Of a DNA stretch of 52,194 nt, positions 466 to 33,808 are shown piece after piece. The stretch lies in assembly GCA_051880775.1 (NCBI GenBank), contig JBJEOP010000065.1, positions 1 through 52,194 on the forward strand. Reading direction: 5' to 3'. The first letter of the stretch is position 1; each line of letters starts with the position of its first letter. The notes under the pieces were generated by a model. That model was not told the origin of the DNA, did not search any database, and worked only from the letters and a program-made list of their open reading frames with translations. Position numbers and translations under genes: made by a program. The stretch is from Acutalibacteraceae bacterium. Lineage in GTDB: Bacteria > Bacillota > Clostridia > Oscillospirales > Acutalibacteraceae.

Positions 466-945
466 ATGGATAATACACAAATGGCAGAAACTATCAAACA
501 ATTATGTAAAACTAAAAAAATAACAGTAAAATCACTTTTAGATATTTGCGATATTAATAGAAATTTTATGTATGACCTCAAAAATAATAAAAAGCCATCT
601 GTTGAAATATTAGAAAAAATTGCTGATTACTTTAATGTATCTATTGACTATCTTCTTGGACGCACCAACACTCCAAAGTTTGAGAATAATATACTTGTAA
701 AAGAGAGTGTAGATAAAGCAAAACTAATAGATAATATAAATCAGCTTAATAATGATGGTATAAAAAAAATACTGGACTACTCAAATGATTTAATATCCAG
801 CGGCAATTATAAAGAAAAAACGGTAACCGTTGTTGTTGCAGCACGAAGTCAAAACAATGATTTTCCGGTTCAACAAATGCAAATTCCTAAATCCAAATTT
901 GAAAAACTTTTAAATGTCGAAGAAGATTATGATGAAAATCTGTAA
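466..945 (+). CDS. XRE-family HTH protein (ImmR-like, 159 aa)
   Basis: The N-terminal HTH_3 reads ITVKSLLDICDINRNFMYDLKNNKKPSVEILEKIADYFNVSIDYLLGRT. RBS AAAGGAG is upstream. An ImmA-type protease gene follows directly. Confidence 0.8.
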   Translation: MDNTQMAETIKQLCKTKKITVKSLLDICDINRNFMYDLKNNKKPSVEILEKIADYFNVSIDYLLGRTNTPKFENNILVKESVDKAKLIDNINQLNNDGIKKILDYSNDLISSGNYKEKTVTVVVAARSQNNDFPVQQMQIPKSKFEKLLNVEEDYDENL

Positions 946-992
946 ATAAAAAACTTCACCTCAATGGGATAATACCTACAAGGTGAAGTTAA

Positions 993-1556
993 ATGGATTA
1001 TGGAAAATACAAGCAAGCACGCAATGCATCGTGGCAGTGTATAATCGATTATAAGATTGACCGATTACCTATTAAAATAACTGATATTATTAAACAAGCT
1101 TATAATATTAAACTTTATAAAAACAGTAAAGTTGATATATTGCCTGATAATAAAAGTGGAATGACTATATATAAAGACAATGTTTTTTATATTGTTTATA
1201 ATGATTTAGATATCCCTGCTCGATGTAGGTTTTCCATTGCCCATGAATATGGACATATAGTATTAGGTCATGTTATGATTGATACTCCGATATATAGAAC
1301 TTTCGCTACTGCTGATGATACTGAAAGATCTGCAAATGTTTTTGCAAGGGATCTGCTTGCTCCGGCATGTGTTTTGCATGAAATAGGAGCAGTAACAGCA
1401 GAACAAATAATGCAAGTGTGCAATATCTCTTATTCTGCTGCTTCTATAAGATCCGAGCGGATGCAGAAGCTTATGCGAAGAAATAAATTGTATGCAGATC
1501 CTCTTGAACTACAAGTCAAAAGGCAATTTCAGGATTTTATTAACAGTTATAAATGA
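993..1556 (+). CDS. ImmA/IrrE-family zinc metallopeptidase (187 aa)
   Basis: HEYGHIVLGH (HExxH) motif plus downstream ANVFARDLLAP, typical of the PF06114 anti-repressor proteases paired with XRE repressors. Confidence 0.85.
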   Translation: MDYGKYKQARNASWQCIIDYKIDRLPIKITDIIKQAYNIKLYKNSKVDILPDNKSGMTIYKDNVFYIVYNDLDIPARCRFSIAHEYGHIVLGHVMIDTPIYRTFATADDTERSANVFARDLLAPACVLHEIGAVTAEQIMQVCNISYSAASIRSERMQKLMRRNKLYADPLELQVKRQFQDFINSYK

Positions 1557-2891: not shown

Positions 2892-3989
2892 GTGATGAAT
2901 TTGGCAGTAATACAGGAATACAAATGTCTTAACTGCGGCGGAACTGTTGTTTTCGACAGCAAATTGCAGAAAATGAAATGCGAATATTGCGGCTCGGAAT
3001 TCGACATGGAGGCACTGAAACAATACGATGAAAATCTGAACAAGGCGTCCGAACCGGACAATATGAACTGGGAAAGTGCAGCCGGTTCCGAGTGGCAGGA
3101 GGGAGAAACCGACGGACTCAGGATATATACCTGCAAGTCCTGTGGCGGTGAGATTATCGGCGACGAAACTATGGCGGCAACGTCTTGTCCTTACTGCAAC
3201 AACCCCGTTGTCATTATGGGACAATTTTCGGGCGATTTAAAGCCGGATTATGTTATTCCGTTCAAGCTGGATAAAAAAGCGGCAAAAGATGCACTGATAA
3301 ATCATTATAAAGGCAAAAGACTTATACCTAAGATATTCAAGGACGAAAATCATATTGACGAAGTAAAAGGAATATATGTACCGTTCTGGCTTTTTGATGC
3401 CGAGGCTGACGCTGATGTTCAGTACAGAGCAACGCGTGTACGCACATGGAGCGACAGCAAGTATAATTACAGAGAAACCAAGTATTATTCCGTTTCCCGT
3501 GGCGGAACAATCGGGTTTGAAAATGTTCCGGTTGACGGTTCGTCAAAAATGCCGGATGCTCTTATGGAATCAGTTGAACCTTTTGACTTTTCTCAGGCAG
3601 TACCGTTCCAGACGGCATATCTTTCGGGTTATCTTGCGGATAAATACGATGTTAACGCTGATGAGAGCAAAGGTCGTGCCAATCATCGTATAAAAATAAG
3701 CACCGAACAGGCTTTTGCAAGCACAGTAAACGGCTATGCGTCTGTTACTACCGAACATTCAAGCATAAATTTGAAAGGCAGTAAGGCAAAGTATGCGTTG
3801 TATCCTGTGTGGATTCTTAACACAAGCTGGAAAGGCGAAAATTATTTATTTGCGATGAACGGACAGACAGGTAAAATGGTCGGTGACCTGCCGCTGGACA
3901 AGGGTGCATATTTCAGATGGCTGCTTGGTATTGCTGGTGTTGTGGGTGCTTTGTGCGTCTTGCTCCGATTTCTGATATGGCTGATATGA
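2892..3989 (+). CDS. Membrane-anchored protein with N-terminal double zinc-ribbon (365 aa), function unknown
   Basis: CLNCGG...CEYCGS and CKSCGG...CPYCNN are CxxC pairs. The C-terminal hydrophobic helix reads WLLGIAGVVGALCVLLRFLIWLI. The start is GTG 2892 or ATG 2895. Confidence 0.7.
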   Translation: MMNLAVIQEYKCLNCGGTVVFDSKLQKMKCEYCGSEFDMEALKQYDENLNKASEPDNMNWESAAGSEWQEGETDGLRIYTCKSCGGEIIGDETMAATSCPYCNNPVVIMGQFSGDLKPDYVIPFKLDKKAAKDALINHYKGKRLIPKIFKDENHIDEVKGIYVPFWLFDAEADADVQYRATRVRTWSDSKYNYRETKYYSVSRGGTIGFENVPVDGSSKMPDALMESVEPFDFSQAVPFQTAYLSGYLADKYDVNADESKGRANHRIKISTEQAFASTVNGYASVTTEHSSINLKGSKAKYALYPVWILNTSWKGENYLFAMNGQTGKMVGDLPLDKGAYFRWLLGIAGVVGALCVLLRFLIWLI

Positions 3990-4002
3990 GGAGGTGCGTA
4001 TA

Positions 4003-5289
4003 ATGAAAAAACGAATTTCTGCGATAATTATGGTTTTAGTTATATGCATTTCTTTTTCAGTACCGGCATTTGCAACAGAAACAAGCTATGTTGTTGACCA
4101 ATCGGGTGCTCTGACAGACAAAGAACTTAAAGATTTAAACGGACTGGGCGAAACATTTGCCAATTCAACCGGCTGTGATATTCTTTATGCATTCATTGAC
4201 GATGAAGATATGGATACATTCGCACAGAATACCGACCTCGGTAAATGTGAAAACGGAATTCTGATGATTGAAAATGAAGAGTTCTGGGATGTATATACCT
4301 ACGGAGAACCTCAGTCTTATCTTAGTGACGACGATGTGGACGCTCTGAGAGATGCCTTTGAAAAAGGTGACGATGCAAATAATGCGGACAGCTTTTTTAA
4401 ATGTATTGCCGCTTATATGTATAAAGCCGATAGGATTGTAAGGGAAAATTCTTCATCACTTCCTTCTGAAAGATCAGTCGTTGAAAACAGTATTCCCACT
4501 GTAGAAAATATAGGCGGATATAACACAACCATAGGAAAAAACGATACCCTTATACTTGAAAACCGCACAAGAGTTGTTGATATGGCGGAACTTATGGACA
4601 ATACCGAAAAATCCTCCCTCCTTTCAAAGCTTGACGAAATAAGCGAAAGACAACAGCTTGATGTCGTGGTTGTAACGGTTAATACTCTTGACAACAAAAC
4701 TCCTGCGGACTATGCCGATGATTTTTATGACTATAACGGTTACGGCTTTGGGGATAATAAAGACGGTGTTCTTCTGCTGGTAAGTATGGAGGATCGTGAC
4801 TGGTATATTACAACAACAGGATACGGCATTACCGCTATTACGGATAAAGGCAGAGAGTATATTTCAGACCAGTTTTTGCCAAAGTTAAGTGACGGCGACT
4901 ATTACGAATCATTTGTTGAATACGCAAATCAGTGCGATAAATTTATCAATCAGGCAAAAACAGGCAAACCTTATGATGTCGGAAATATGCCGAAAGAACC
5001 GTTCCCGACTGTTACTGCGATAGTGTTAGGTCTGATAATAGGTTTTATAGTTGCATTTGTTATTACTTCCAGTATGAAAGGTAAGCTGAAAACGGTTCGT
5101 ATGCAGAATGAAGCGTCAAATTATGTGACAAAAAGGGGTATGAGGGTTACAAACAAACAAGATGTTTTCCTCTATTCTAATGTCAGCAAAATCAGAAGAT
5201 CAACTGAAAGCAGCAGTGGCGGAGGCGGTTCAAGCACACATATATCTTCATCGGGCAGCAGTCACGGTGGAGGCGGCGGCAAATTCTGA
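4003..5289 (+). CDS. TPM-domain (YgcG-like) secreted/membrane protein with Gly/Ser-rich C-terminal tail
   Basis: Signal peptide, two TPM-like segments (VVDQSGALTD..., RVVDMAELM...QLDVVVVTV), a TM helix and a terminal GGGGSSTHISSSGSSHGGGGGKF tail typical of YgcG-type proteins. RBS GAGGAGG lies 8 nt before ATG 4003; the ORF track starts at GTG 3994. Confidence 0.75.
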   Translation: MKKRISAIIMVLVICISFSVPAFATETSYVVDQSGALTDKELKDLNGLGETFANSTGCDILYAFIDDEDMDTFAQNTDLGKCENGILMIENEEFWDVYTYGEPQSYLSDDDVDALRDAFEKGDDANNADSFFKCIAAYMYKADRIVRENSSSLPSERSVVENSIPTVENIGGYNTTIGKNDTLILENRTRVVDMAELMDNTEKSSLLSKLDEISERQQLDVVVVTVNTLDNKTPADYADDFYDYNGYGFGDNKDGVLLLVSMEDRDWYITTTGYGITAITDKGREYISDQFLPKLSDGDYYESFVEYANQCDKFINQAKTGKPYDVGNMPKEPFPTVTAIVLGLIIGFIVAFVITSSMKGKLKTVRMQNEASNYVTKRGMRVTNKQDVFLYSNVSKIRRSTESSSGGGGSSTHISSSGSSHGGGGGKF

Positions 5290-5337
5290 GTAAACAGAAG
5301 CCTGTTTCGCAAGAATAAAATTTAAAACAAAAATAAA

Positions 5338-5373
5338 AAGATTGTCATCTGGAAAAGACGGCAATCTTTTTTG
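5338..5373. terminator. Bidirectional intrinsic terminator between convergent genes
   Basis: Stem AAGATTGTCATC / GACGGCAATCTT is flanked by an A-run upstream and T-run downstream. Confidence 0.7.
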
Positions 5374-5394
5374 CTGTTTATATGAAATTCTGTA

Positions 5395-6018
5395 TTACTC
5401 GATAAGCCATACAACCTCAACCGATTCGGACTCTTTTGTTACAGGCGACTGAATCATATTTGAATAATTCAATGTCTTTGTTGAAAAAAGGCAAGTTGTA
5501 ATGTCATAAAATACATCATCTGTGGGATTATTATATCTTTCACCGATTTTTACGGAATCAATGCCGATGAGTTTTTGCCCCATTGACTCGGCAATAAATA
5601 TGGCTTTTTGCCTCGAATCCTCTATTGCCTCTTTGATAAGGTTGTTGTGAATTTCCGTGATGTTGGAAATGCTGTAATCGGTGTCAATATCCACATCGTA
5701 GTCTTTGTCCTGAATAAGCGTCATAATATGGTTTTTGAATTCCATATTGAACGGAACACGCATTTTGATTTTTCTTTTGGCACGAACATTAAATTTTTTA
5801 TCACTGTAATTCTGACTTACAGAGTCATCACCTATTCTTATGCTGTCCATAGATACGCCGTCTTTGTTCATTTCGGCAAGAAAATCCTCACACTGATTCA
5901 GCACCTTTTCGAGTGCGGCGGAAGTGGAGTTTTCGTGTACCTCAAAACTGACGGTAACTTCAACGGTGTCGTAAGGGTATTCGTGCGTTGCTTTTCCTAC
6001 AATAGATAATTTGCCCAT
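5395..6018 (-). CDS. SIMPL-domain (DUF541) protein, 207 aa
   Basis: The size and the N-terminal pattern (GKLSIVGKATHEYPYDTVEVTVSFEV...TSAALEKV) resemble DUF541/SIMPL proteins. This is a recollection-level match only. Confidence 0.5.
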   Translation of the reverse strand: MGKLSIVGKATHEYPYDTVEVTVSFEVHENSTSAALEKVLNQCEDFLAEMNKDGVSMDSIRIGDDSVSQNYSDKKFNVRAKRKIKMRVPFNMEFKNHIMTLIQDKDYDVDIDTDYSISNITEIHNNLIKEAIEDSRQKAIFIAESMGQKLIGIDSVKIGERYNNPTDDVFYDITTCLFSTKTLNYSNMIQSPVTKESESVEVVWLIE

Positions 6019-6203
6019 TTTTGTGTCCTCCTTGTTTAATGTTTGTTATTTTTATTATATCATACAAAATGTCCGGAAAAATACCCTTATGTTAAATTTG
6101 AACGAAAATTTTTTGACAATACAGAGAAAATTTCTTATAATATACATAAAAGATGATTTGCATTATTATTGAATGAAAAAATAACTGAAAGGACGGTGCA
6201 TAT

Positions 6204-8252
6204 ATGGAGACAAAAATGTCAGCTACGCTTGATTTGTTCAAGGTATCATATAGAGTTGTGCGTAAAAATTCCGCTGAAATTTATAAAGGTTTTGGCTTTA
6301 AACATCTTTCGGACGCAACTCAGTATTATGTACACCCGAACAATGAGTCATACAAAGGTACAACAACGCTTTGTCAGCCTATCGGAGAGGCGATAATACT
6401 TTTTGCAGGACTTGCAAAGGGAAGTGTTTTCGGTGATTATTATGTAAGCAACGACCTTAAAGAAGTATATATGGAGATTGATGTTCCGTCTGATTATCGT
6501 GAAAACGGCGTTGTTGCCCCGGCGTCTGACGGACTTTTCTATGACATAACAGCCTTGCAACGCACATCAGAATATATGAACTGGAAACCGGATTTTCTTG
6601 CAAATCAATTCAATGCACTGCATATCATTACAAGGTCGCAGACGATTCACGAGTGTTTGCATATACTGTATTCGGATTTTCCGCCAAAAGCCGCCATAGA
6701 CACAATATGTGATACAAAAATCAGGAGAAAAGTTCTTGCCCTGATTGCAAACATTATTGAGGACGCATACATAGAGGCTGTCGGTTGCAGTGTTTATGAC
6801 AATATGGAGCTTTATCTGCGTTTCGGACAGGCTTCGAGGCTGTTTTTAACACGCTTGTCGGAGGGAACGGCAAAAATGACTTTTCAAAGCGAAACCGAAC
6901 AGGCGGAAAGCAAACCTGAACTGAAAAAACAGACAGAAACACTGCTTGATTATCTGGAATATATGATAACATTCCTGCTTTATCCTATGTGCAAACTTGA
7001 AGAACCGCCGACGGAAATTGCGGAATATGTCGAAAAGACAAAGCAACTGTTTCTTGACGGAAGTTTTGCACCGTCACCCGACGAAAGATACGAATATGCA
7101 AGAAAAATCTATGATATTATTTTGCCGCTTGTTCCCGATACGGAAGATGATTTAGACGATAAAAGACTGTCAGAACTTATCGGCGGAGTGAAAACACACA
7201 GCCCTGACGCAAGCACTATCGGCGGTGAAAAACACAAGGGCATAACTCAGACGGTAACTGTACGGCTGTTTACCGACAAGGACGGCAATATGCGTAAAGC
7301 GGACGAAAAGTCATTTGATAAGCTGATTGAGGCGGCAAGAATATCTGCACGGCACATACAGGAGGCACTCAGTATTGTTCTTGATAACGGCTTTGTGTCG
7401 GTGTCACACGGCGGTGATTTTGACTGTTCAGTTCTGCACAATCATATAAAAATAAATGAAGTACACCCGAAGATTAACCTGAATTTACGCAAAGCCTATC
7501 AGAATATATATCAAAAATACCGTGTGAACATAAATTCATACAACACACGCTTTGCACAAATTCTTGAATCACACCGGACATTAAGAGATGAAAAGCGTAG
7601 ATTCGGTTCGGGCATAAATTTCTCACGACTCGGAGATCCGCATAAACGCTACTGGTACAGAAACAGTGACGAAATTGATGTTCCCGATATGTCAGTACTG
7701 CTGTTGATTGACGGTTCGGGTTCTATGCGTGGAGAACGCAGGAACAGTGCAATAAATTCTTCAATCATACTGCACGAGGTGCTGAAAAAACAGGGAATCA
7801 GACACGCCATTGTTGAACACAGGGCAAACTTTGCAGAACCTGAAATTGATGTAAATGTGCTTGTGGACTTTAATTCCCGTAACGAAGAAAAATACAATCT
7901 TATGCAAATCAAGGCAGACGGGAACAGCCGTGACGGACTGGCACTGTTCTGGGCGGAAAAATACATAAATCAGCATACAGCCTGTGAAAACAAGCTGATT
8001 ATTGTAATTTCAGACGGAATTCCTCTGCACGAATATGATAAATATTATCCGCCTGTATCAACTAAGGATACGGCAAATGCCGCAAGAAAAATCATAAAGC
8101 GTGGCACAAAAATAATTGCAATTTCACTTGATGACGCCGGATGTTATGAATGTTATGAACAGCTGAAAGAAATTTATCCTCAGCTTATTGCCTGTAACGA
8201 TTTAACACGGCTTACAGGTCAGCTGCTTGGTTTAATCGCAAAGCTGCTTTAA
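6204..8252 (+). CDS. von Willebrand factor A (vWA) domain protein with N-terminal HExxH motif (682 aa)
   Basis: The C-terminal vWA domain has the MIDAS motif LLLIDGSGSMRG. The N-terminal HECLH lies at codons 149-153 (nt 6648-6662). The start is possibly ATG 6216, which has RBS GGAGA. Confidence 0.75.
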   Translation: METKMSATLDLFKVSYRVVRKNSAEIYKGFGFKHLSDATQYYVHPNNESYKGTTTLCQPIGEAIILFAGLAKGSVFGDYYVSNDLKEVYMEIDVPSDYRENGVVAPASDGLFYDITALQRTSEYMNWKPDFLANQFNALHIITRSQTIHECLHILYSDFPPKAAIDTICDTKIRRKVLALIANIIEDAYIEAVGCSVYDNMELYLRFGQASRLFLTRLSEGTAKMTFQSETEQAESKPELKKQTETLLDYLEYMITFLLYPMCKLEEPPTEIAEYVEKTKQLFLDGSFAPSPDERYEYARKIYDIILPLVPDTEDDLDDKRLSELIGGVKTHSPDASTIGGEKHKGITQTVTVRLFTDKDGNMRKADEKSFDKLIEAARISARHIQEALSIVLDNGFVSVSHGGDFDCSVLHNHIKINEVHPKINLNLRKAYQNIYQKYRVNINSYNTRFAQILESHRTLRDEKRRFGSGINFSRLGDPHKRYWYRNSDEIDVPDMSVLLLIDGSGSMRGERRNSAINSSIILHEVLKKQGIRHAIVEHRANFAEPEIDVNVLVDFNSRNEEKYNLMQIKADGNSRDGLALFWAEKYINQHTACENKLIIVISDGIPLHEYDKYYPPVSTKDTANAARKIIKRGTKIIAISLDDAGCYECYEQLKEIYPQLIACNDLTRLTGQLLGLIAKLL

Positions 8253-26381: not shown

Positions 26382-26759
26382 TTGTTTCAGTCTGTCGAAA
26401 ATGTTTGCGACGGTGCAAAAATACCGACAGTCAAACAAAAAGAAATCCGTTATCTTACAAAAGATGAACAAGTCAGAATTATGGAAAACACAAAAACCGA
26501 AAGACTTGGTTTTGCTGTGGAACTTGCTCTTGCAACAGGAATGAGAGAAGCGGAAATATGCGGTCTTAAATGGTCTGATATAAAATGGAACAATGATAGT
26601 TGTGTCATAAATATTAAACGAATCATTTCCCGAATTTCTCATAGCAAGAATGAGCGTAACAATAAGAAAAATATAAAAAAGACTCTTGTTGTTGAAGCTG
26701 AAACAAAAACCGAAAAAAGCAAAAGAGAAACAGCTTTTACAAAAAGCATTGGAAGTTGA
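26382..26759 (+). pseudogene. Tyrosine-recombinase (phage integrase family) fragment containing only the start of the catalytic domain
   Basis: RYLTKDEQVRIMENTK..RLGFAVELALATGMREAEICGLKWSDI is box I with the catalytic Arg, followed by TKTEKSKRE. There is no N-terminal SAM-like domain upstream and no HxxR/Tyr region downstream. Confidence 0.65.
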
Positions 26760-27279
26760 AGACATACATTTGCTTGAAAGGCACAACAAACGCTATACTT
26801 CATTGGCTGATTATGACAATCTGAAACAAATTGCAAAACAGCTTGGTGTAAAGCCTGAGTTTCTTATAATTGACAAAGAACAGCTTGCAAAGTTGAATGA
26901 AGAAAAAGACAGATTTGTTGTCTTGCCGACAAAGGACGGTAAAATTCGCCTTGCGTTTCTTCCACAGAACAAAGAGTATATTTTTAATTTGCTTTATCCT
27001 GAAAAGAAACAGAATAAAGAAGATGTTTTCTCGGTCAACCGAAATTCAAAGGTAAATACAAGATTGAAGTCAGAAGTATTACTCGGCGGTCAGAAAATGT
27101 GTTACAGGACACTTACCAAAAATCAGGTTGAACAACTCTATTCTGAACAGGACACGAAAGAACTTTTTGCAGCCTTTAATAAAAACACACAAGATTACAA
27201 TGTTGCATTTAAAGATTGTGATGAAGAAAAGATTGATATTGTTCTGAGCGGAAAAAATACAGTCAAAAGACAAAGATAA
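26686..27279 (+). CDS. Hypothetical protein (197 aa), possibly a remnant
   Basis: ORF only. It overlaps the integrase fragment in another frame, has no recognisable motifs, and ends 10 nt from the convergent hsdR stop. Confidence 0.3.
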   Translation: MLLKLKQKPKKAKEKQLLQKALEVEDIHLLERHNKRYTSLADYDNLKQIAKQLGVKPEFLIIDKEQLAKLNEEKDRFVVLPTKDGKIRLAFLPQNKEYIFNLLYPEKKQNKEDVFSVNRNSKVNTRLKSEVLLGGQKMCYRTLTKNQVEQLYSEQDTKELFAAFNKNTQDYNVAFKDCDEEKIDIVLSGKNTVKRQR

Positions 27280-27289
27280 TATTAAGTTT

Positions 27290-30200
27290 TTAAATATCCA
27301 TTACATTGTCTGTCCAGAGTTCGCACTGTGTCATAACGGTCTGAACAGCGTCTTCCATACCCTCAGGCGGGTATTTATGTTTTCTGAGAAGTTTTTTGAT
27401 AAGCATACGCATTTTTGCCCTTGCGGAGTCCCTTTTCTGCCAGTCGATTGTTTTGTTTTTGCGTAGAGTATCTGCCAGTTCCTTTGTAATTGCAATCAGT
27501 TCGTCATTTTCGTAAAAATCCTTGATTGCCTGTGGCTTTGTAAGAGCGTCATAAAAGGCAAGCTCGTCTGCTGTAAGACCGAGTTTTTCTCCGTCTTTGT
27601 GTGCTGCGGCAATTTGTTTTGCGAGTTTCAGCATTTCTTCAATGACTTCTTCATTTGTCAGCATACCGTTAAGATAAGCATTAAGAGAACGCTGCATAAT
27701 TTCGCTGAATTTTTCGGACTTAACAACATTTGTCCTGCGATAAACGGACACCTGTTCTGCAATAAGTTTTTTCAGAAGTTCAACAGCAAGATTTTTTTCT
27801 TTCATATTTGCAACTTCTTCAAGAAATTCAGGGTCAAACAGCGAAAATTCCTCTTTAATATCCGAAAAAAGATTTATTACACCCTCACTTTTGATACTTT
27901 GTTTTAATAATTCGTTGATTCTTGCGTTCATTTCAGGGAGGGAAATTTTCTTTCCTGTTCCTGTATTCGTAAGCCTTAGTACAAGAACACGCACAGCTTC
28001 AAAAAATGCGGCTTCAAAACGGCTGTCCTCATCGACAATGGACGAACAAAGAGATAATGCCTGACGCAGCATAAGTGCTTCTTTGACAAATGAATCCTTG
28101 TCTTCGATTTTCTCTCTGTCCATAATAAAGTTTACAGCACCGCTTATTGTTTTTGCCCGTTCAAGATCAGTGCCTGTTTTAAACTTTGAATAATCGTATC
28201 CGTGAAATTTGTCACGGCATACTGACAATTTTTCCATAAATTTAGGATAAGCAACCTTTGATACATCAGTATTGCCGTAATTCTTTTTATCACGGACAGT
28301 ATAGTCATTCATTGCCTGTTTTAAAGCGGTTGCAATGCCTACATAATCTACAATAAGTCCGCCCTCTTTATCTCGGAATACACGATTTACACGGGCGATT
28401 GCCTGCATAAGATTATGTCCTGACATAGGCTTGTAAACATACATAGTAGCAAGCGACGGAACATCAAATCCCGTAAGCCACATATCTACAACAATGGCAA
28501 TTTTAAGCGGACTGTTATTATCCTTGAATTTTTTTGCGAGTTCGTCTTTGTGTTGTTTGTTGCCGATAATTTTATGCCATTCTTCCGGGTCATTGTTTCC
28601 TGATGTCATAACTACAGCCACTTTTTCTGTCCAGGCAGGGCGAAGTTTAAGAATACGATGGTATATTTTCATCGCAATAGGTCGGGAATATGCAACAATC
28701 ATTGCTTTGCCTGTAAGCAAATTTTCACGGTTGTTCTCGTAATGGTCGAGAATATCGCAAACTAATGAATTAACCGTATTGTCGTTGCCGAGAATTGCCT
28801 CCATTTGTCCGAGTTCACGCTTGCTTTTTTGTATGACTTCTTCATCAGCATTATTTGCCATAATGTCATATTCATCATCAATAAGTTTAAGAGTTTTCTC
28901 GTCAAGATTCAGTTTGATTACACGGCTTTCATAATAAACAGGTCGTGTTGCTCCGTCCTCTACTGCCTGTGTCATATCGTAAATGTCGATATAATCTCCG
29001 AATACTTCACGGGTGCTACGGTCTTTTGAGGATATAGGCGTACCTGTAAAGCCAATGTATGTAGCGTTTGGCAAAGTGTTGCGGATAATACGGGCTGTAC
29101 CTGTAACACGCTTTGCAATATCTTCGCCCTTTTCGTTTTTGGTTATTTTTATCTTTTCTGTAAGTCCATACTGTCCCCGGTGTGCTTCATCTGCCATAAC
29201 AATTATATTATTGCGTTCTGAAAGCGGTTCGTGCGATTCCTCGAACTTTTGCATTGTTGTAAAAATAATGCCGTTTGCCTGTCTGCCGGCAAGCAGGGAT
29301 TTCAGATGTTCACGGCTTTCAGCGTGTATCGGTTCCTGCCTTAAAAAATCCTTGCACTTTGCAAACTGACTGTAAAGCTGATTGTCAAGGTCGTTTCTGT
29401 CGGTCAGTACAACGATTGTCGGGCTGTTTAGTGTTTCCTGTAATAAATGAGCATAAAACACCATAGAAAGCGACTTTCCGCTTCCCTGTGTGTGCCAGAA
29501 TACACCGCCTTTACCGTCCGTAAGTGTTGCGTGTTTTGTGGATTCAATAGCTTTTCTTACCGCAAAATACTGATGATAGCCTGCAAGAATTTTAAAAGAA
29601 TTTATACCCTCGTTAGAAAAGCATATAAAATTCTTTATTATATCAAGCAGTCTTTCTTTTTTGAATATTCCCTCAAAGAAAGTGTCAAACTGTGCATACT
29701 GTGTGTTTTCGTAATCTCCGTCCTTTGTTTTCCATTCCATAAAGCGGTCTTCACCTGAGGTAATTGTACCCGCTTTTGAAGTCAGCTGGTCGCTCATTAC
29801 ACAAATAGCGTTGTAAATGAACATTGACGGAATTTCCATCATATAGTTTCTAAGTTGCCTGTATGCCTCAGACACATCTGTTTCTTCACGGGACGGCGAT
29901 TTTAACTCAATCAGAACAACAGGCAAACCGTTCAGAAACAGAATTACATCGGGGCGTTTGTTGCTGTTTTCAATGAATGTCCATTGATTAGCAACGATAA
30001 AGGAGTTATTGTCGGGATTTTTATAGTCAACAAGATAAACGATAGAGGAACGCTCCTCACCGTCAACAAAAAATCTTACAGGAATACCGTTTTGCAGATA
30101 GTCCATAAAGACAGCGTTTTTCTGCACAAGTTCTCCGTTTTCAAAGTTTTTCAGCCTGAACAATGCGTCCTGAATAGCATCATCAGGCAGTCCTCTGTTC

Positions 30201-30355
30201 AGACGATAAAGAGCGTCAGTTAATACTTCTTCATATAACGGATTGCAATAATCTCTTTCAATATCAAAACCGTATGCGTAATCGTATCCCAAATCATTTC
30301 TGAACAGCTCAATTACAGAGTTTTCATAATCGGCTTCTGTGTATAATCCCGGCAT
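27290..30355 (-). CDS. hsdR: Type I restriction enzyme R subunit
   Basis: An N-terminal HSDR_N-like region, helicase motif I (HTQGSGKS) and motif II (IVMADEAHRGQ). The C-terminal DUF3387-like tail reads DWQKRDSARAKMR..IKKLLRKHKYPPE. Strong RBS AAGGAGG. Confidence 0.9.
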   Translation of the reverse strand: MPGLYTEADYENSVIELFRNDLGYDYAYGFDIERDYCNPLYEEVLTDALYRLNRGLPDDAIQDALFRLKNFENGELVQKNAVFMDYLQNGIPVRFFVDGEERSSIVYLVDYKNPDNNSFIVANQWTFIENSNKRPDVILFLNGLPVVLIELKSPSREETDVSEAYRQLRNYMMEIPSMFIYNAICVMSDQLTSKAGTITSGEDRFMEWKTKDGDYENTQYAQFDTFFEGIFKKERLLDIIKNFICFSNEGINSFKILAGYHQYFAVRKAIESTKHATLTDGKGGVFWHTQGSGKSLSMVFYAHLLQETLNSPTIVVLTDRNDLDNQLYSQFAKCKDFLRQEPIHAESREHLKSLLAGRQANGIIFTTMQKFEESHEPLSERNNIIVMADEAHRGQYGLTEKIKITKNEKGEDIAKRVTGTARIIRNTLPNATYIGFTGTPISSKDRSTREVFGDYIDIYDMTQAVEDGATRPVYYESRVIKLNLDEKTLKLIDDEYDIMANNADEEVIQKSKRELGQMEAILGNDNTVNSLVCDILDHYENNRENLLTGKAMIVAYSRPIAMKIYHRILKLRPAWTEKVAVVMTSGNNDPEEWHKIIGNKQHKDELAKKFKDNNSPLKIAIVVDMWLTGFDVPSLATMYVYKPMSGHNLMQAIARVNRVFRDKEGGLIVDYVGIATALKQAMNDYTVRDKKNYGNTDVSKVAYPKFMEKLSVCRDKFHGYDYSKFKTGTDLERAKTISGAVNFIMDREKIEDKDSFVKEALMLRQALSLCSSIVDEDSRFEAAFFEAVRVLVLRLTNTGTGKKISLPEMNARINELLKQSIKSEGVINLFSDIKEEFSLFDPEFLEEVANMKEKNLAVELLKKLIAEQVSVYRRTNVVKSEKFSEIMQRSLNAYLNGMLTNEEVIEEMLKLAKQIAAAHKDGEKLGLTADELAFYDALTKPQAIKDFYENDELIAITKELADTLRKNKTIDWQKRDSARAKMRMLIKKLLRKHKYPPEGMEDAVQTVMTQCELWTDNVMDI

Positions 30356-30373
30356 AATTGACCTCCTTATGTA

Positions 30374-31048
30374 TTAAAGTTTAGCAATATCAAGTGTATA
30401 ACCATTGTTTTGCATTTCTTTAGCAAGTGATAACTTCACTTCTTCTACATTATTTTTAAATGGTATATAGATAAGACCATCTATATCAGACGGCTTTTCC
30501 ATTGTTTCTGCCTGTGATAGAAGAATAGCAACTTTATCACGACCAATTCGAGAAAGTAACATTCCAAGTTCAAGAACAACATTCTGCCTTACTCGATACT
30601 GCTTTTTTGATTCATCATTTTTAGGATACCCAATATCATCTGGTGTTGCTAAAACGATTCCAAAATCAACTTGGCTTGTGTATTCTTCAAGCTTTTCAAT
30701 TATTGTTTGACCAGAAGAAATAAGCTGATCTAAAATAAGAGGTTCTAAATCCCACCTTCTTAGCATAGCTTCAAGTTGAGTTCGAGCATTTGTGTCATGA
30801 CCATAGACAACAAAAACTTTTTTATTAGCTGTCGTTTTCAAAGTTGAATTATGCAATATACTCATAACCTCCTGAGTATTTTTACCTTGCAGATTTACTT
30901 TACCGCTATCCCAACAGTTGATAATACAACCATTTGAAAGATTTAGGACTGTTGCAAGATTGTTTCCACTTCTCTTTTCATTTGCAATCGTAAAACCGTT
31001 AGCAATAAGAGTCTTTTTTACCTGTTCAAGAGACATTGTAAAGCTCAT
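30374..31048 (-). CDS. TIR-like domain protein (Cap12/PycTIR-type, COG4271-like) with N-terminal RNase HIII-N-like domain; candidate defence effector embedded in the hsd operon
   Basis: The C-terminal domain reads KVFVVYGHD..., GQTIIEKLEE, DFGIVLATPDD, RVRQNVVLELGML, EKPSDIDGLIY. The N-terminal CIINCWDSGKVNLQGKNTQE resembles the RNase HIII N-domain signature SGKVLFQGK. The gene is on the same strand, with gaps of 59 nt to hsdS and 18 nt to hsdR. Confidence 0.7.
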   Translation of the reverse strand: MSFTMSLEQVKKTLIANGFTIANEKRSGNNLATVLNLSNGCIINCWDSGKVNLQGKNTQEVMSILHNSTLKTTANKKVFVVYGHDTNARTQLEAMLRRWDLEPLILDQLISSGQTIIEKLEEYTSQVDFGIVLATPDDIGYPKNDESKKQYRVRQNVVLELGMLLSRIGRDKVAILLSQAETMEKPSDIDGLIYIPFKNNVEEVKLSLAKEMQNNGYTLDIAKL

Positions 31049-31107
31049 AATTATCTGTTTCCTTTCAAAAAAATATGGTTGATTTGTATAAACAATAATT
31101 TAGCGGC

Positions 31108-32235
31108 TTAAATATCAATTTCTGAAACATCAAGCTCGCCTGACATAAGTTTTTGTAACAAACTATCTCTTAAAGCCGTTAATTGTTTATTTTCAGCAGC
31201 ATTAGTTCTGTATAGCTCTTTGAATGGCTTCACGAAATCCGAAAATTCTGATAATTCATTGTCGCTTGGAATGGGAATTTCGTACTTTTCAAGTGTTGAT
31301 ACTGTAATTTGTGGTTGAGCAGAGCCAGTATTCATTACTTTAGTATCGTGAAGTCGTAGATAATGATATAAATAATCATCGTGTTCAACACAAGTGGTAA
31401 TGATTGCGATTGCAAGATTTGTTAGATAACAGTTTGCTGGTGTGTACTTTATATCTCCACAACCACCAACACCACGGGCAACGATAATAAGTTGTGGTTC
31501 GGAATACATTACTTCGGGATATAAGCCAACTATTTGATAACCACTGAAAGCCACATAGTTTCCTGTTCCTAACTTTTCTTTTTTAGGCATTGTTCCATAC
31601 TTGAATTTAGCAATAGTTCCTAATGTGCTGTAAACGGAAATATCATTATCATATTTGCTAAACATATCATGGAATTTTGCAGTAACTTGTTTCATTAAAT
31701 TATTGTTTATAGAAATATTAAGTTTGATTTTGTCATCTAATGGCTTTAAAACGCTTATAACCTTTTCTTGTTGTTCCAATTTAGGAATGTTCACTGTTAC
31801 CTGTTTAAAATCCTTTAACACTATTCTTGGTAATGCTGAACCTGATACGCAATTCGATGAAATGTAATTATACACATCAGGTGATTTTAACAAATAACAC
31901 AAGTATTCAGGTATAACATATTCAGTATTAGGTCTGAAAATAGCAATAGACGATAAAATTGCCTCATCTTTTGTTTCATTACATAAAAATATTTGCTTTA
32001 AATAACTTCCATCTTTGGCTACTAAAATGTCATTTTTTTGTGGAACACAACCTCCTTTTTTCATTTTTTCAAAATCTTCACCTGAGATTTTTTTGCATTT
32101 TGAATAATCAAATCCATATTCCAACATATCTTTTACAGAAAACATTGGATAACCGTTTTCAACAGCTTTTGGACTATAATGTGAACCATCAGTTATAGTG
32201 GTGCATATTTGTTCTAACTTATATTTCATACCCAA
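31108..32235 (-). CDS. hsdS: Type I restriction enzyme specificity subunit
   Basis: Two target-recognition-domain halves separated by coiled conserved regions (LEQQEKVISVLKPLDDKI... and ENKQLTALRDSLLQKLMSGELDV). It overlaps the hsdM stop by 17 nt. Confidence 0.85.
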   Translation of the reverse strand: MGMKYKLEQICTTITDGSHYSPKAVENGYPMFSVKDMLEYGFDYSKCKKISGEDFEKMKKGGCVPQKNDILVAKDGSYLKQIFLCNETKDEAILSSIAIFRPNTEYVIPEYLCYLLKSPDVYNYISSNCVSGSALPRIVLKDFKQVTVNIPKLEQQEKVISVLKPLDDKIKLNISINNNLMKQVTAKFHDMFSKYDNDISVYSTLGTIAKFKYGTMPKKEKLGTGNYVAFSGYQIVGLYPEVMYSEPQLIIVARGVGGCGDIKYTPANCYLTNLAIAIITTCVEHDDYLYHYLRLHDTKVMNTGSAQPQITVSTLEKYEIPIPSDNELSEFSDFVKPFKELYRTNAAENKQLTALRDSLLQKLMSGELDVSEIDI

Positions 32236-33724
32236 TCGCCCCTAACTTCTTGCGGATTTCTTCTTCGAGTTCGTGGGATTTTTTGAACATATCCGACAGT
32301 TCTGATGTTAGACGGGTCATCTTTTCTTCAAACGGTTCGCCGTCGTCTTCCTGTTCCTCAATGCCTACATATCGTCCCGGAGTAAGAATAAAATCCTGTT
32401 TTTCAATCTCTTTAAGGTCGGCTACTGCACAAAAACCTTTTACATCTTCAAGCGTTCCGTCCTGAAACTGACTGAATGTATCTGCTAACTTCTGTATATC
32501 CTCGTCGGTAAAATCCCTGTGTTTACGGTCAACCATATATCCCATTTTTCGTGCGTCAATAAACAGAGTTTTGCCTTTTTGCTTTTTGTTTTTTGAAATA
32601 AACCAGAGCGTAACGGGAATTGTAACGCTGTAAAAAAGCTGTGTCGGCATAGCTACAATGCCTTCTACAAGGTCAGCCTGAATGATATTTTTTCTTATTT
32701 CACCCTCACCGCCTGACTGAGAAGACAAAGCACCGTTAGCAAGCACAAGACCGATTTTTCCGTTAGGTGCAAGATGATGTATCATATGCTGAATCCACGC
32801 ATAGTTGGCATTTCCGGCAGGCGGTATTCCGTATTTCCAGCGAACATCGTCTTTGAGCTTATCCTGTCCCCAGTTAGAAAGGTTAAAAGGAGGATTAGCC
32901 ATAATAAAATCTGCTTTAAGCGTTTTATGTAAATCATTAAAGAATGTGTCAGCGTGATATGCTCCGAAATCAGCGTCAATGCCACGAATAGCCATATTCA
33001 TTTTTGCCATTTTCCAGGTATCAGCGTTGGATTCCTGACCGTAAACGGCAATTTCTCCACGCTTGCCACTGTGTGCCTGAATGAATTTTGCACTCTGTAC
33101 GAACATACCGCCACTGCCACAGCAAGGGTCATATACACGGCAGTTTTTGAACGGTTTAAGTATTGCAACAATAGTTTTAACGATACTTGCCGGAGTGTAG
33201 AACTCACCGCCCTTAACACCCTCATAGGCGGCGAACTGCTGAATACAATATTCGTAGGTTCTGCCGAGTAAGTCTTTGCTGTCTTCTGTGTCGCCCATAT
33301 CAACATTTGTAAACAGGTCAACAACATCACCCAGAACACGCTTGTCTAAATCAGGACTTGCGTAATTTTTCGGCAAAACATTTTTAAGAGTAGGGTTTTC
33401 TTTTTCAATAGCCCTCATAGCGTCGTCTATAACTGTGCCTATTTCGGGTGTATGTGCCGCCGAAGCTATTTTGCTCCAACGAGCGTCCACAGGTACAAAG
33501 AAAATATTTTCTTCTGTGTAAGCGTCCCTGTCGTCCTCGAAACCGTCGCCCTCATCGACAAGCTCCTGATAGCGTTTTTCAAATGCACTTGAAATATACC
33601 TCAGGAAGATAAGACCTACAATAACCTTTCTGTATTCTGCCGCAGGAATATGTCCCCAAAGAACACAGGCGGCATTCCATATTTGTTTTTCAAAGCCTAT
33701 ATTAGCATTATTGCTTGTAGCCAT
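32219..33724 (-). CDS. hsdM: Type I restriction enzyme N6-adenine DNA methyltransferase subunit
   Basis: An HsdM_N-like N-terminus (LWNAACVLWG...EYRKVIVGLIFLRYIS), the AdoMet motif VYDPCCGSGGM and the catalytic motif ANPPFN. Confidence 0.9.
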   Translation of the reverse strand: MATSNNANIGFEKQIWNAACVLWGHIPAAEYRKVIVGLIFLRYISSAFEKRYQELVDEGDGFEDDRDAYTEENIFFVPVDARWSKIASAAHTPEIGTVIDDAMRAIEKENPTLKNVLPKNYASPDLDKRVLGDVVDLFTNVDMGDTEDSKDLLGRTYEYCIQQFAAYEGVKGGEFYTPASIVKTIVAILKPFKNCRVYDPCCGSGGMFVQSAKFIQAHSGKRGEIAVYGQESNADTWKMAKMNMAIRGIDADFGAYHADTFFNDLHKTLKADFIMANPPFNLSNWGQDKLKDDVRWKYGIPPAGNANYAWIQHMIHHLAPNGKIGLVLANGALSSQSGGEGEIRKNIIQADLVEGIVAMPTQLFYSVTIPVTLWFISKNKKQKGKTLFIDARKMGYMVDRKHRDFTDEDIQKLADTFSQFQDGTLEDVKGFCAVADLKEIEKQDFILTPGRYVGIEEQEDDGEPFEEKMTRLTSELSDMFKKSHELEEEIRKKLGAIGYEI

Positions 33725-33759: not shown

Positions 33760-33803
33760 AATCTACATATTTATTAAGTATTATAACAATAAATATGTAG
33801 ATT
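33760..33803. promoter_or_regulatory. Perfect 15-bp inverted repeat AATCTACATATTTAT / ATAAATATGTAGATT overlapping the hsd promoter (candidate operator)
   Basis: Arms at 33760-33774 and 33789-33803 with a 14-nt spacer. One arm fills the -35/-10 spacer and the other lies just downstream of the predicted start site. Confidence 0.55.
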
Positions 33804-33808
33804 TTCAA
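33780..33808 (-). promoter_or_regulatory. Sigma-A-like promoter of the hsd operon (TTGAAA, 17 nt spacer, TATAAT on the minus strand)
   Basis: On the minus strand this reads TTGAAA (33808-33803), a 17-nt spacer, then TATAAT (33785-33780). It lies about 55 nt upstream of the hsdM ATG. Confidence 0.55.

Follow-up and report, generated by a model that had tools for sequence, protein, structure and literature searches.

What is a 224-aa protein doing between the specificity and the restriction subunits of a Type I restriction-modification (R-M) operon? The question is raised by a 52,194-nt stretch of DNA from an Acutalibacteraceae bacterium (contig JBJEOP010000065.1 of GenBank assembly GCA_051880775.1; the whole stretch is referred to as the window), in which hsdS and hsdR are separated by an open reading frame (ORF) with an ATG start (30374..31048, minus strand). 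Chance does not account for this ORF, since thousands of proteins match it: 4381 at E ≤ 1e-5, and 10168 representatives of 50%-identity clusters at E ≤ 1e-3. Sequence comparisons indicate that its product, the embedded protein, is probably a defence TIR NAD+ hydrolase (NADase). It comprises an N-terminal TBP-like domain, a short linker and a C-terminal TIR domain, and the peptide strings that a first-pass annotation of the DNA had picked out from it are all present where they were placed.

The C-terminal part (residues 77-224; 30377..30820, minus strand) is a TIR domain of the Cap12/PycTIR type (PF10137), and a putative NAD+ glycohydrolase. Residues 77-198 match PF10137 with an E-value of 1.9e-36 (125.1 bits against a cut-off of 24.7) over positions 1-118 of the 119-position profile. 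A profile built from 31 relatives at 34-56% identity and searched against the PDB retrieved only four distinct sequences at E ≤ 0.01, namely PycTIR (8jsj, E=5.4e-11) and the Cap12/TIR-STING entries 9lmq (7.6e-11), 7un8 (2.4e-10) and 7un9 (4.2e-4). Structural similarity search with Foldseek, using a full-length AlphaFold2 (AF2) model with a predicted local distance difference test (pLDDT) score of 69, also ranked TIR-STING first, with the TIR domains of SARM1 and MyD88 lower down. The TIR-like character proposed for this half by the first-pass annotation was thus recovered by both the family profile and the fold search.

In the cryo-electron microscopy structure of SfSTING, E84 is the catalytic residue, R78 and N80 contact the phosphodiester and the ribose, L47 is among the residues stacking on the nicotinamide, and D110 is donated by the opposite TIR of the dimer (PMC9402430). 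HMMER alignments to 7un8_A, with a constant offset of 8, place identical residues at all of these positions: L47 corresponds to L120, R78 to R154, N80 to N156, E84 to E160 and D110 to D188. The predicted catalytic glutamate, E160 (codon 30569..30571, minus strand), lies in the motif RQNVVLELG on helix αC, with L120, R154, N156 and D188 as its pocket partners. None of these five residues varies within the close clade (the 24 loci whose homologue is ≥63% identical), and in a diverse set at 35-56% identity each is ≥90% conserved or invariant. As judged from the alignments, the embedded protein is endowed with a complete Cap12-type NAD+ pocket.

The first-pass annotation had assigned the catalytic glutamate to the IIEKLE segment (Glu118/Glu121), an assignment that has to be given up because SfSTING E84 aligns to E160 instead. 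E118 and E121 align to SfSTING D45 and I48, and are conserved in the subfamily but not common to Cap12. The IIEKLEE helix lines the nicotinamide pocket through L120, the counterpart of SfSTING L47.

The N-domain (residues 1-66; 30851..31048, minus strand) is a TBP-like domain of β-α-β4-α topology that resembles the N-terminal domain of RNase HIII (DUF3378-like), and it is a putative nucleic-acid-binding sensor. It is followed by a linker (residues 67-76; 30821..30850, minus strand) that is variable in length and sequence across the family and is predicted with low confidence (pLDDT <50 at residues 72-76). Residues 1-76 are basic, with a pI of 9.45, compared to a pI of 4.96 for the acidic TIR domain. 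The N-domain is the better-predicted half of the protein, with pLDDT values of 76-88 within the full-length model and 82 when modelled alone (76-90 over the two models). Its DUF3378 score in Pfam is sub-threshold (18.8-20.2 bits against a gathering threshold of 27), and the NCBIfam model rnhC (TIGR00716) matches residues 7-77 only, with an E-value of 6.6e-6. A diverse profile of the N-domain alone, searched against 177,635 PDB sequences, gave two RNase HIII proteins as the best matches, from Aquifex (3vn5, E=1.5e-5) and Thermovibrio (4py5, E=2.6e-5), followed by the non-significant LsoA, Bst-RNase HIII and TBP (E of 0.1-0.5). The same two structures headed the Foldseek list of the isolated N-domain model (4py5 and 3vn5; probability 1.00, TM-score of 0.62-0.65, root-mean-square deviation of 2.7-3.0 Å), with other TBP-like folds ranked below the RNase H3 structures. 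Precomputed Pfam annotation of relatives also lists PF11858 in P0126 and P0279, and PF11858 together with PF10137 in P0280 and P0281. Homology of the N-domain to that of RNase HIII, as suggested in the first-pass annotation, is well supported, even though the Pfam score falls short of its threshold.

The N-domain of RNase H3 binds the RNA/DNA hybrid across the minor groove via an exposed β-sheet, with Tyr43 and His28 stacking on deoxyriboses of the DNA strand and Gly52 contacting a 2'-OH; in isolation it binds only hybrids in electrophoretic mobility shift assays (PMC4132731). When the N-domain is aligned to 4py5 by profile, W46 takes the place of Tyr43 and G55 that of Gly52, so that both equivalents are retained: position 46 is an invariant Trp in the close clade and mostly Phe, Tyr or Trp family-wide, and G55 is ≥90% conserved. 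By analogy with RNase H3, a nucleic acid is a possible trigger of the embedded protein, a proposal that we regard as tentative and somewhat short of an even chance. The TIR side of the family is modular, as relatives carry other domains in front of it, including an RNase H1-like domain (RVT_3/RNase_H) in the 306-aa P0211, which belongs to the same TIR clade, AbiJ_NTD4 in P0232 and a response-regulator receiver in P0220. The P0211 fusion hints at a second, independent link of this TIR lineage to hybrid-type nucleic acids. As for the N-domain, word-indexed searches for its fusion to other effectors gave 7 and 11 proteins, fragments of this family for the most part, and a hidden Markov model scan of 210 fetched loci found it only in TIR-fused or split copies.

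The first-pass annotation had considered this configuration undescribed, which proved not to be the case. The embedded protein matches the PADLOC model PDLC05006 (PDC-S35) over its full length (E=1.7e-97; residues 5-224 against profile positions 1-231), and four further PDC-S35 models with E-values of 5.7e-68 to 1.2e-53. The family stems from the "guilt-by-embedding" collection of Payne et al. (2024), which gathered genes located within BREX, DISARM and Type I R-M systems; 145 "phage defence candidates" were curated and put into PADLOC, and left as candidates without testing (bioRxiv 10.1101/2024.01.29.577857). Embedding is thus the very feature by which the catalogue selects, and same-strand embedding in a Type I R-M operon was found both in the window and among the close homologues, as detailed below. 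On these profile matches, the embedded protein is a new member of the already catalogued candidate family PDC-S35. The PDC-S35 entry in PADLOC-DB carries no description, and the supplementary files of Payne et al. that were examined hold no entry for it in a table of candidates. A published census of TIR proteins dropped the standalone ones (bioRxiv 10.64898/2025.12.03.692087). To the PDC-S35 entry, the present analysis adds the assignment of the N-domain as RNase HIII-N-like, a map of the catalytic residues and statistics on the gene context.

Our best reading, on which we are evenly divided, is that the embedded protein is an autonomous, mobile, single-protein abortive-infection effector that travels inside R-M operons, and in which binding of nucleic acid nucleates TIR assembly and NAD+ depletion. 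In the uninfected cell, the protein would be monomeric or dimeric, and inactive. Upon infection, the N-domain would bind duplex nucleic acid across the minor groove, the leading candidate ligand being an RNA/DNA hybrid or another intermediate of phage replication or transcription. Several molecules side by side on the duplex would bring their TIR domains together, and this assembly would complete composite active sites in trans via D188, as in TIR-STING filaments or SPARTA. The ensuing hydrolysis of NAD+ would leave the infected cell no longer able to support phage growth. The Hsd proteins would not be needed for this action; the embedding would rather ensure co-expression and co-transfer with a first-line R-M barrier, resulting in layered immunity. 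Such autonomy is suggested because full-length homologues occur without hsd neighbours and the window encodes no signalling partner: in keeping with the first-pass annotation, models of CD-NTase, cyclase and ThsA found no match among the 33 other large ORFs of the window.

The operon itself is as the first-pass annotation had outlined it, a canonical hsd operon in which the gaps on the two sides of the embedded gene are 59 and 18 nt. The gene hsdM (32219..33724, minus strand) encodes a Type I N6-adenine DNA methyltransferase of 501 aa (HsdM_N, E=2e-25; N6_Mtase, E=2.5e-111; PADLOC MTase_I, E=3.5e-206). Its end is overlapped by 17 nt by the start of hsdS (31108..32235, minus strand; TTG start), which encodes a specificity subunit of 375 aa with Methylase_S matched in two stretches (E=1.9e-25; PADLOC Specificity_I, E=1.1e-56). 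The product of hsdR (27290..30355, minus strand) is a Type I restriction endonuclease/translocase of 1021 aa with HSDR_N, SWI2_SNF2, T1R_D3-like and T1RH-like_C domains, which matches PADLOC REase_I at 1016.6 bits with a reported E-value of 0. All three genes are intact and lie on one strand, and by their Pfam and PADLOC profiles they make up a Type I R-M system.

Direct reading of the spacers showed that the embedded gene and hsdR each have their own Shine-Dalgarno sequence. The 59-nt spacer between hsdS and the embedded gene (31049..31107, minus strand) bears the ribosome-binding site AAGGAA 9-10 nt ahead of the start codon, the sequence upstream of the ORF being GAAAGGAAACAGATAATT-ATG, and the 18-nt spacer before hsdR (30356..30373, minus strand), which reads TAA-TACATAAGGAGGTCAATT-ATG from the stop of the embedded ORF to the start of hsdR, has a perfect AGGAGG. 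The best promoter-like site upstream of hsdM (33780..33808, minus strand; TTGAAA-17-TATAAT with an extended TG, 11 of 12 matches) is the probable operon promoter. No comparable promoter-like site was found in the 59-nt gap, and no terminator-like site at either junction of the embedded gene. Because the four genes are co-oriented and no such site flanks the embedded gene, hsdM, hsdS, the embedded gene and hsdR most likely, and most simply, form one predicted transcript.

How closely the gene is tied to this operon was judged from 209 related loci from genomes, metagenomes and viral contigs (L numbers below), in which the hsd genes were located by tblastn with a panel of HsdM, HsdS and HsdR sequences. 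In the close clade, hsd genes adjoin the homologue in 19 of the 24 loci, in the order hsdM-hsdS-X-hsdR (X being the homologue) wherever both flanks are present. Of the other five, three (L010, L055 and L016, the last with the gene truncated) have ample flanks but no Type I genes, and the remaining two loci are too short for a decision. More distant members reside in defence islands and prophages. The close-clade hosts include Oscillospiraceae, Ruminococcus and other gut Clostridia, together with a Bacteroidota metagenome-assembled genome (MAG) of Tidjanibacter (L012). At 50-62% identity, about five of 12 informative loci are embedded; their Type I families share just 25-31% identity with that of the window, and the gene occupies another position in the operon (L063, L073, L074 and L082). 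The hsd genes also adjoin two homologues at 37-39% identity (L179 and L181) and one from Mesorhizobium (L015).

This recurrence is one argument for a different role, that of a PrrC-like guard silenced by or monitoring the HsdMSR complex, which would fire when restriction is neutralised and deplete NAD+ as a fail-safe; we consider it unlikely. Its trigger might, for example, be the capture by the N-domain of a DNA-mimic anti-restriction protein of the Ocr/ArdA class, or the stalling or inhibition of HsdR. In the window and in 17 related loci (counting L060 of the 56% identity group), the gene lies immediately upstream of hsdR at a distance of ≤43 nt, and the embedding recurs in several unrelated Type I families. 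PrrC, for which Payne et al. report a nearly exclusive location within Type I R-M systems (bioRxiv 10.1101/2024.01.29.577857), sets a precedent, and a minor-groove DNA-binding fold could conceivably engage a DNA mimic. However, no hsd gene lies within 8 kb of many full-length homologues, among them about 30 loci from Collinsella (46% identity), about 38 viral or prophage loci (36-37%), L057, L065, L069, L083 and the E. coli phages described below. Moreover, a 70% identical homologue sits in a LlaJI system instead (L010, 1234-11623), where it comes after a LlaJI-type cluster (two Dcm methylases, an AAA_5 protein and RE_LlaJI) and before a third Dcm gene and one of the GmrSD family. From this placement, the cassette also uses restriction operons other than Type I.

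The divergence of the genes likewise argues against a co-evolved protein-protein interface. Across the loci, the identities of HsdM and HsdR to those of the window track each other closely (Spearman 0.97), whereas that of X does not track them. Loci with HsdM and HsdR 87-94% identical to the window carry X at only 69-72% identity, and conversely X at 77-92% identity (L013 and L011) is found in operons whose HsdM and HsdR are only 34-41% identical. Since its similarity is decoupled from that of HsdM and HsdR, X is a cassette that passes from one restriction operon to another. Outside hsd operons, the neighbours of full-length members include Thoeris ThsA-Macro and ThsB, an AAA_13 ATPase and AbiJ_NTD3, or structural and replication genes of phages. 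Three E. coli phage genomes of 36-43 kb carry a full-length copy at 37% identity, annotated "TIR-like domain-containing protein", which in Escherichia phage vB_EcoM-689R2 (L210; ON470582.1, 3105-3866) lies between the DNA polymerase gene and genes for a nuclease and a helicase; the same clade occurs on about 38 IMG/VR contigs. Altogether, the pattern of neighbourhoods suggests a mobile, autonomous defence gene with a strong but non-exclusive preference for R-M operons.

Several points weigh against the autonomous, nucleic-acid-triggered effector that we favour. The tight and recurrent junction with hsdR could reflect functional dependence on HsdR rather than mere co-transfer. Two of the four hybrid-recognition residues of RNase H3 are not conserved, Glu27/His28 being replaced by G28/N29, and the fold alone is no proof of nucleic-acid binding, as TBP-like domains also occur in the RnlA/LsoA toxins. 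The AF2 confidence of the TIR half is moderate (pLDDT of ~50-70); the residue-level claims on the TIR domain rest on sequence alignments to solved structures, not on this model. Finally, our literature search found no characterisation of the PDC-S35 family or of a DUF3378-TIR architecture. A bolder version joins the two proposals, with the N-domain as a direct sensor of an infection-specific RNA/DNA hybrid, an R-loop-type intermediate or a DNA-mimic anti-restriction protein that switches on the TIR NADase, and with the hsdR-coupled clade as a PrrC-analogous TIR fail-safe built from different parts; we think it rather unlikely.

The same two domains could also be read as an enzyme docked on its substrate, in which the N-domain holds the TIR domain on RNA or DNA so that it acts on NAD-capped RNA, or as an N-glycosidase of nucleotides or nucleic acids. 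Fusion to a nucleic-acid-binding domain would indeed place the enzyme on such substrates, TIR proteins of several bacteria are described as decapping NAD-RNA (PMC10937652), and Foldseek also matches nucleotide N-glycosidases that share this superfold, namely the CMP N-glycosidase BcmB and DNPH1. Nevertheless, in its residues the pocket is that of TIR-STING, an enzyme that hydrolyses NAD+, down to the Asp donated across the dimer, and the sequence matches to Cap12 and PycTIR (E of ~1e-10 to 1e-11) are far stronger than the fold-only matches to BcmB and DNPH1 (E of ~2e-3), which makes this role improbable.

A non-immune role, as a selfish addiction or stabilisation toxin of the R-M cassette or as a regulator of restriction activity, would fit the mobility of the cassette, seen in an integrase remnant and in cassette swapping, and the split or frameshifted copies in several loci, as expected of a costly or toxic gene. 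We hold it to be very unlikely, as no antitoxin-like small ORF is conserved beside the gene, the Pfam scan found no feature of a DNA-binding regulator such as a helix-turn-helix (HTH), and the family is also present in defence islands and in accessory regions of prophages, locations characteristic of anti-phage genes. Least probable of all is a Thoeris-like enzyme that would make a messenger, cADPR-type or related, to act on an effector encoded at another genomic site, because, although many bacterial TIRs produce signals, PF10137 TIRs serve as the class of effectors in CBASS and Pycsar, the TIR census itself excludes CBASS- and Pycsar-context TIRs as likely NAD+-depleting effectors (bioRxiv 10.64898/2025.12.03.692087), and neither the window nor the conserved neighbourhood, in which the only conserved neighbours are hsd genes, holds a ThsA, SLOG or Macro partner.

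The integrase remnant is a tyrosine-recombinase (phage integrase) fragment just past the 3' end of hsdR (26382..26759, plus strand), which keeps just the first half of its catalytic domain and matches positions 2-86 only of the 172-position Phage_integrase profile (E=8.9e-12). The fragment is likely to be left over from the mobile element that brought the R-M cassette into a housekeeping region, the remaining genes of the window including aminotransferases, FolD, Lgt, release factor RF3, a P-type ATPase and ABC transporters. Given these surroundings and the truncated recombinase, the hsd cassette looks like an old insertion. The fragment overlaps an ORF of 197 aa without a Pfam match, the two together occupying 26382-27279 (plus strand), directly past the 3' end of hsdR. 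Farther away, at 466-1556 (plus strand), an HTH protein of the Cro/C1 type (PADLOC capH-like, E=1.1e-7) is followed by an IrrE/M78 peptidase ORF, the presumed source of a PADLOC capP-like match (E=4.9e-17). Pairs of an HTH and an IrrE/M78 regulator often adjoin defence or mobile-element operons. A cluster of Zn-ribbon, TPM-domain, SIMPL and VWA-domain proteins occupies 2892-8249 on both strands. PADLOC mad3-like (2e-37) and mad8-like (1.5e-16) matches were recorded among the 33 scanned ORFs of the window.

The related loci offered further observations. A second embedded gene stands between the TIR gene and hsdR in three of them, encoding an FRG-domain protein in L011 (8871-10031) and L002 (11891-13165), and a 194-aa protein without a Pfam match in L013 (9283-9867); it may be a co-travelling cassette. 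In L002 (7314-10958), the TIR gene has beside it a tyrosine recombinase, another complete hsdS and a partial one in inverted orientation, and this region by its gene order has the layout of a phase-variable (shufflon-type) specificity locus. In L017 (7938-10069) and about 30 Collinsella loci, the stop of the TIR gene overlaps the start of a gene of 491 aa, for which Pfam gives MqsA-like and TPR matches only, far under threshold. Genes for FHA, SPFH/Band-7 (with a Zn ribbon) and Fic proteins lie around this pair, which may represent a two-gene variant of the system. Copies broken between the N-domain and the TIR domain by frameshift or truncation were found in L011 (8001-8677, the break falling in the linker), L016, L087, L090, L044, L042, L065 and L094, which could reflect either MAG assembly error or inactivation of a costly gene. 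In addition, 1159 plasmid records, mostly from Klebsiella, Escherichia and Salmonella, contain PF10137-type TIRs, annotated "nucleotide-binding protein", that align at <60% identity with the C-terminal two-thirds of the query; only two records cover ≥80% of it.

If the family is active, the embedded protein, with a single sensing domain and a single TIR in ~220 aa, would rank among the smallest known immune sensors that are self-contained. It would also be the first demonstrated case of a Cap12-type TIR that needs no cyclic-nucleotide messenger as its trigger, and would provide a simple model both of ligand-nucleated TIR assembly and of restriction operons that carry second-line effectors. The residue map names the positions for mutants: E160, R154, N156, L120 and D188 in the TIR domain, and W46 and G55 in the sensor.

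Compared to the catalogued PDC-S35 family, the embedded protein has the same single-gene architecture and the same embedding, with no structural difference. Its closest characterised relatives are Cap12 (TIR-STING) of CBASS and PycTIR of Pycsar, which share the TIR subfamily PF10137 and the identical pocket of L, R, N, E and D; activation driven by oligomerisation is expected to be a further common feature. However, the embedded protein lacks the STING or cyclic-nucleotide-binding domain of Cap12: the Cap12 equivalogs reach 39-41 bits where the cut-off is 450, and only the TIR domain aligns. Likewise, the PADLOC PycTIR model covers only residues 72-209, the TIR part, and the window has no cyclase. 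Unlike in both Cap12 and PycTIR, the sensor is a TBP-like domain located N-terminal to the TIR domain. Membership in CBASS, Pycsar or Thoeris was rejected, as the protein lacks a receptor domain and the window lacks a CD-NTase, cyclase or ThsA, and so was identity with Thoeris ThsB, as PF08937 gives no match and the window has no ThsA.

With RNase HIII, the embedded protein has in common the β-α-β4-α fold of the N-domain and its C-terminal motif, (aromatic)-x-x-G-x-(V/I)-x-x-Q/G-G-K, but differs in the hybrid-discriminating pair, with Gly/Asn in place of Glu/His, and in the absence of an RNase H catalytic domain. It was accordingly not taken for an RNase HIII itself, since neither Pfam nor NCBIfam detects an RNase H domain and the rnhC match is confined to the N-terminal part. 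The antiphage toxins RnlA and LsoA also contain TBP-like domains with a similar "...G-S-I-Q-F-Q-G-K" strand motif (LsoA with E=0.099 in the profile search, RnlA among the Foldseek matches); their effector is a HEPN RNase under antitoxin control, and the likeness is weak and limited to one small domain.

PrrC and RloC are likewise effectors whose genes are nested in Type I R-M operons. They are otherwise unrelated to the embedded protein, in which Pfam and PADLOC find no ABC-ATPase or anticodon nuclease domain and whose family often occurs outside hsd operons; the comparative data lean against an obligate coupling of the family to the Type I enzyme. In the short prokaryotic Argonaute system SPARTA (short pAgo with TIR-APAZ), the logic is similar to that proposed here, from nucleic-acid recognition through TIR oligomerisation to NAD+ depletion, which is a mechanistic analogy only. 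SPARTA uses a heterodimer with a guide-loaded Argonaute (PMC11851103), whereas in the embedded protein a TBP-like domain of 66 residues is fused directly to the TIR domain. Measured against these characterised systems, the embedded protein would be a new variant of TIR effector.

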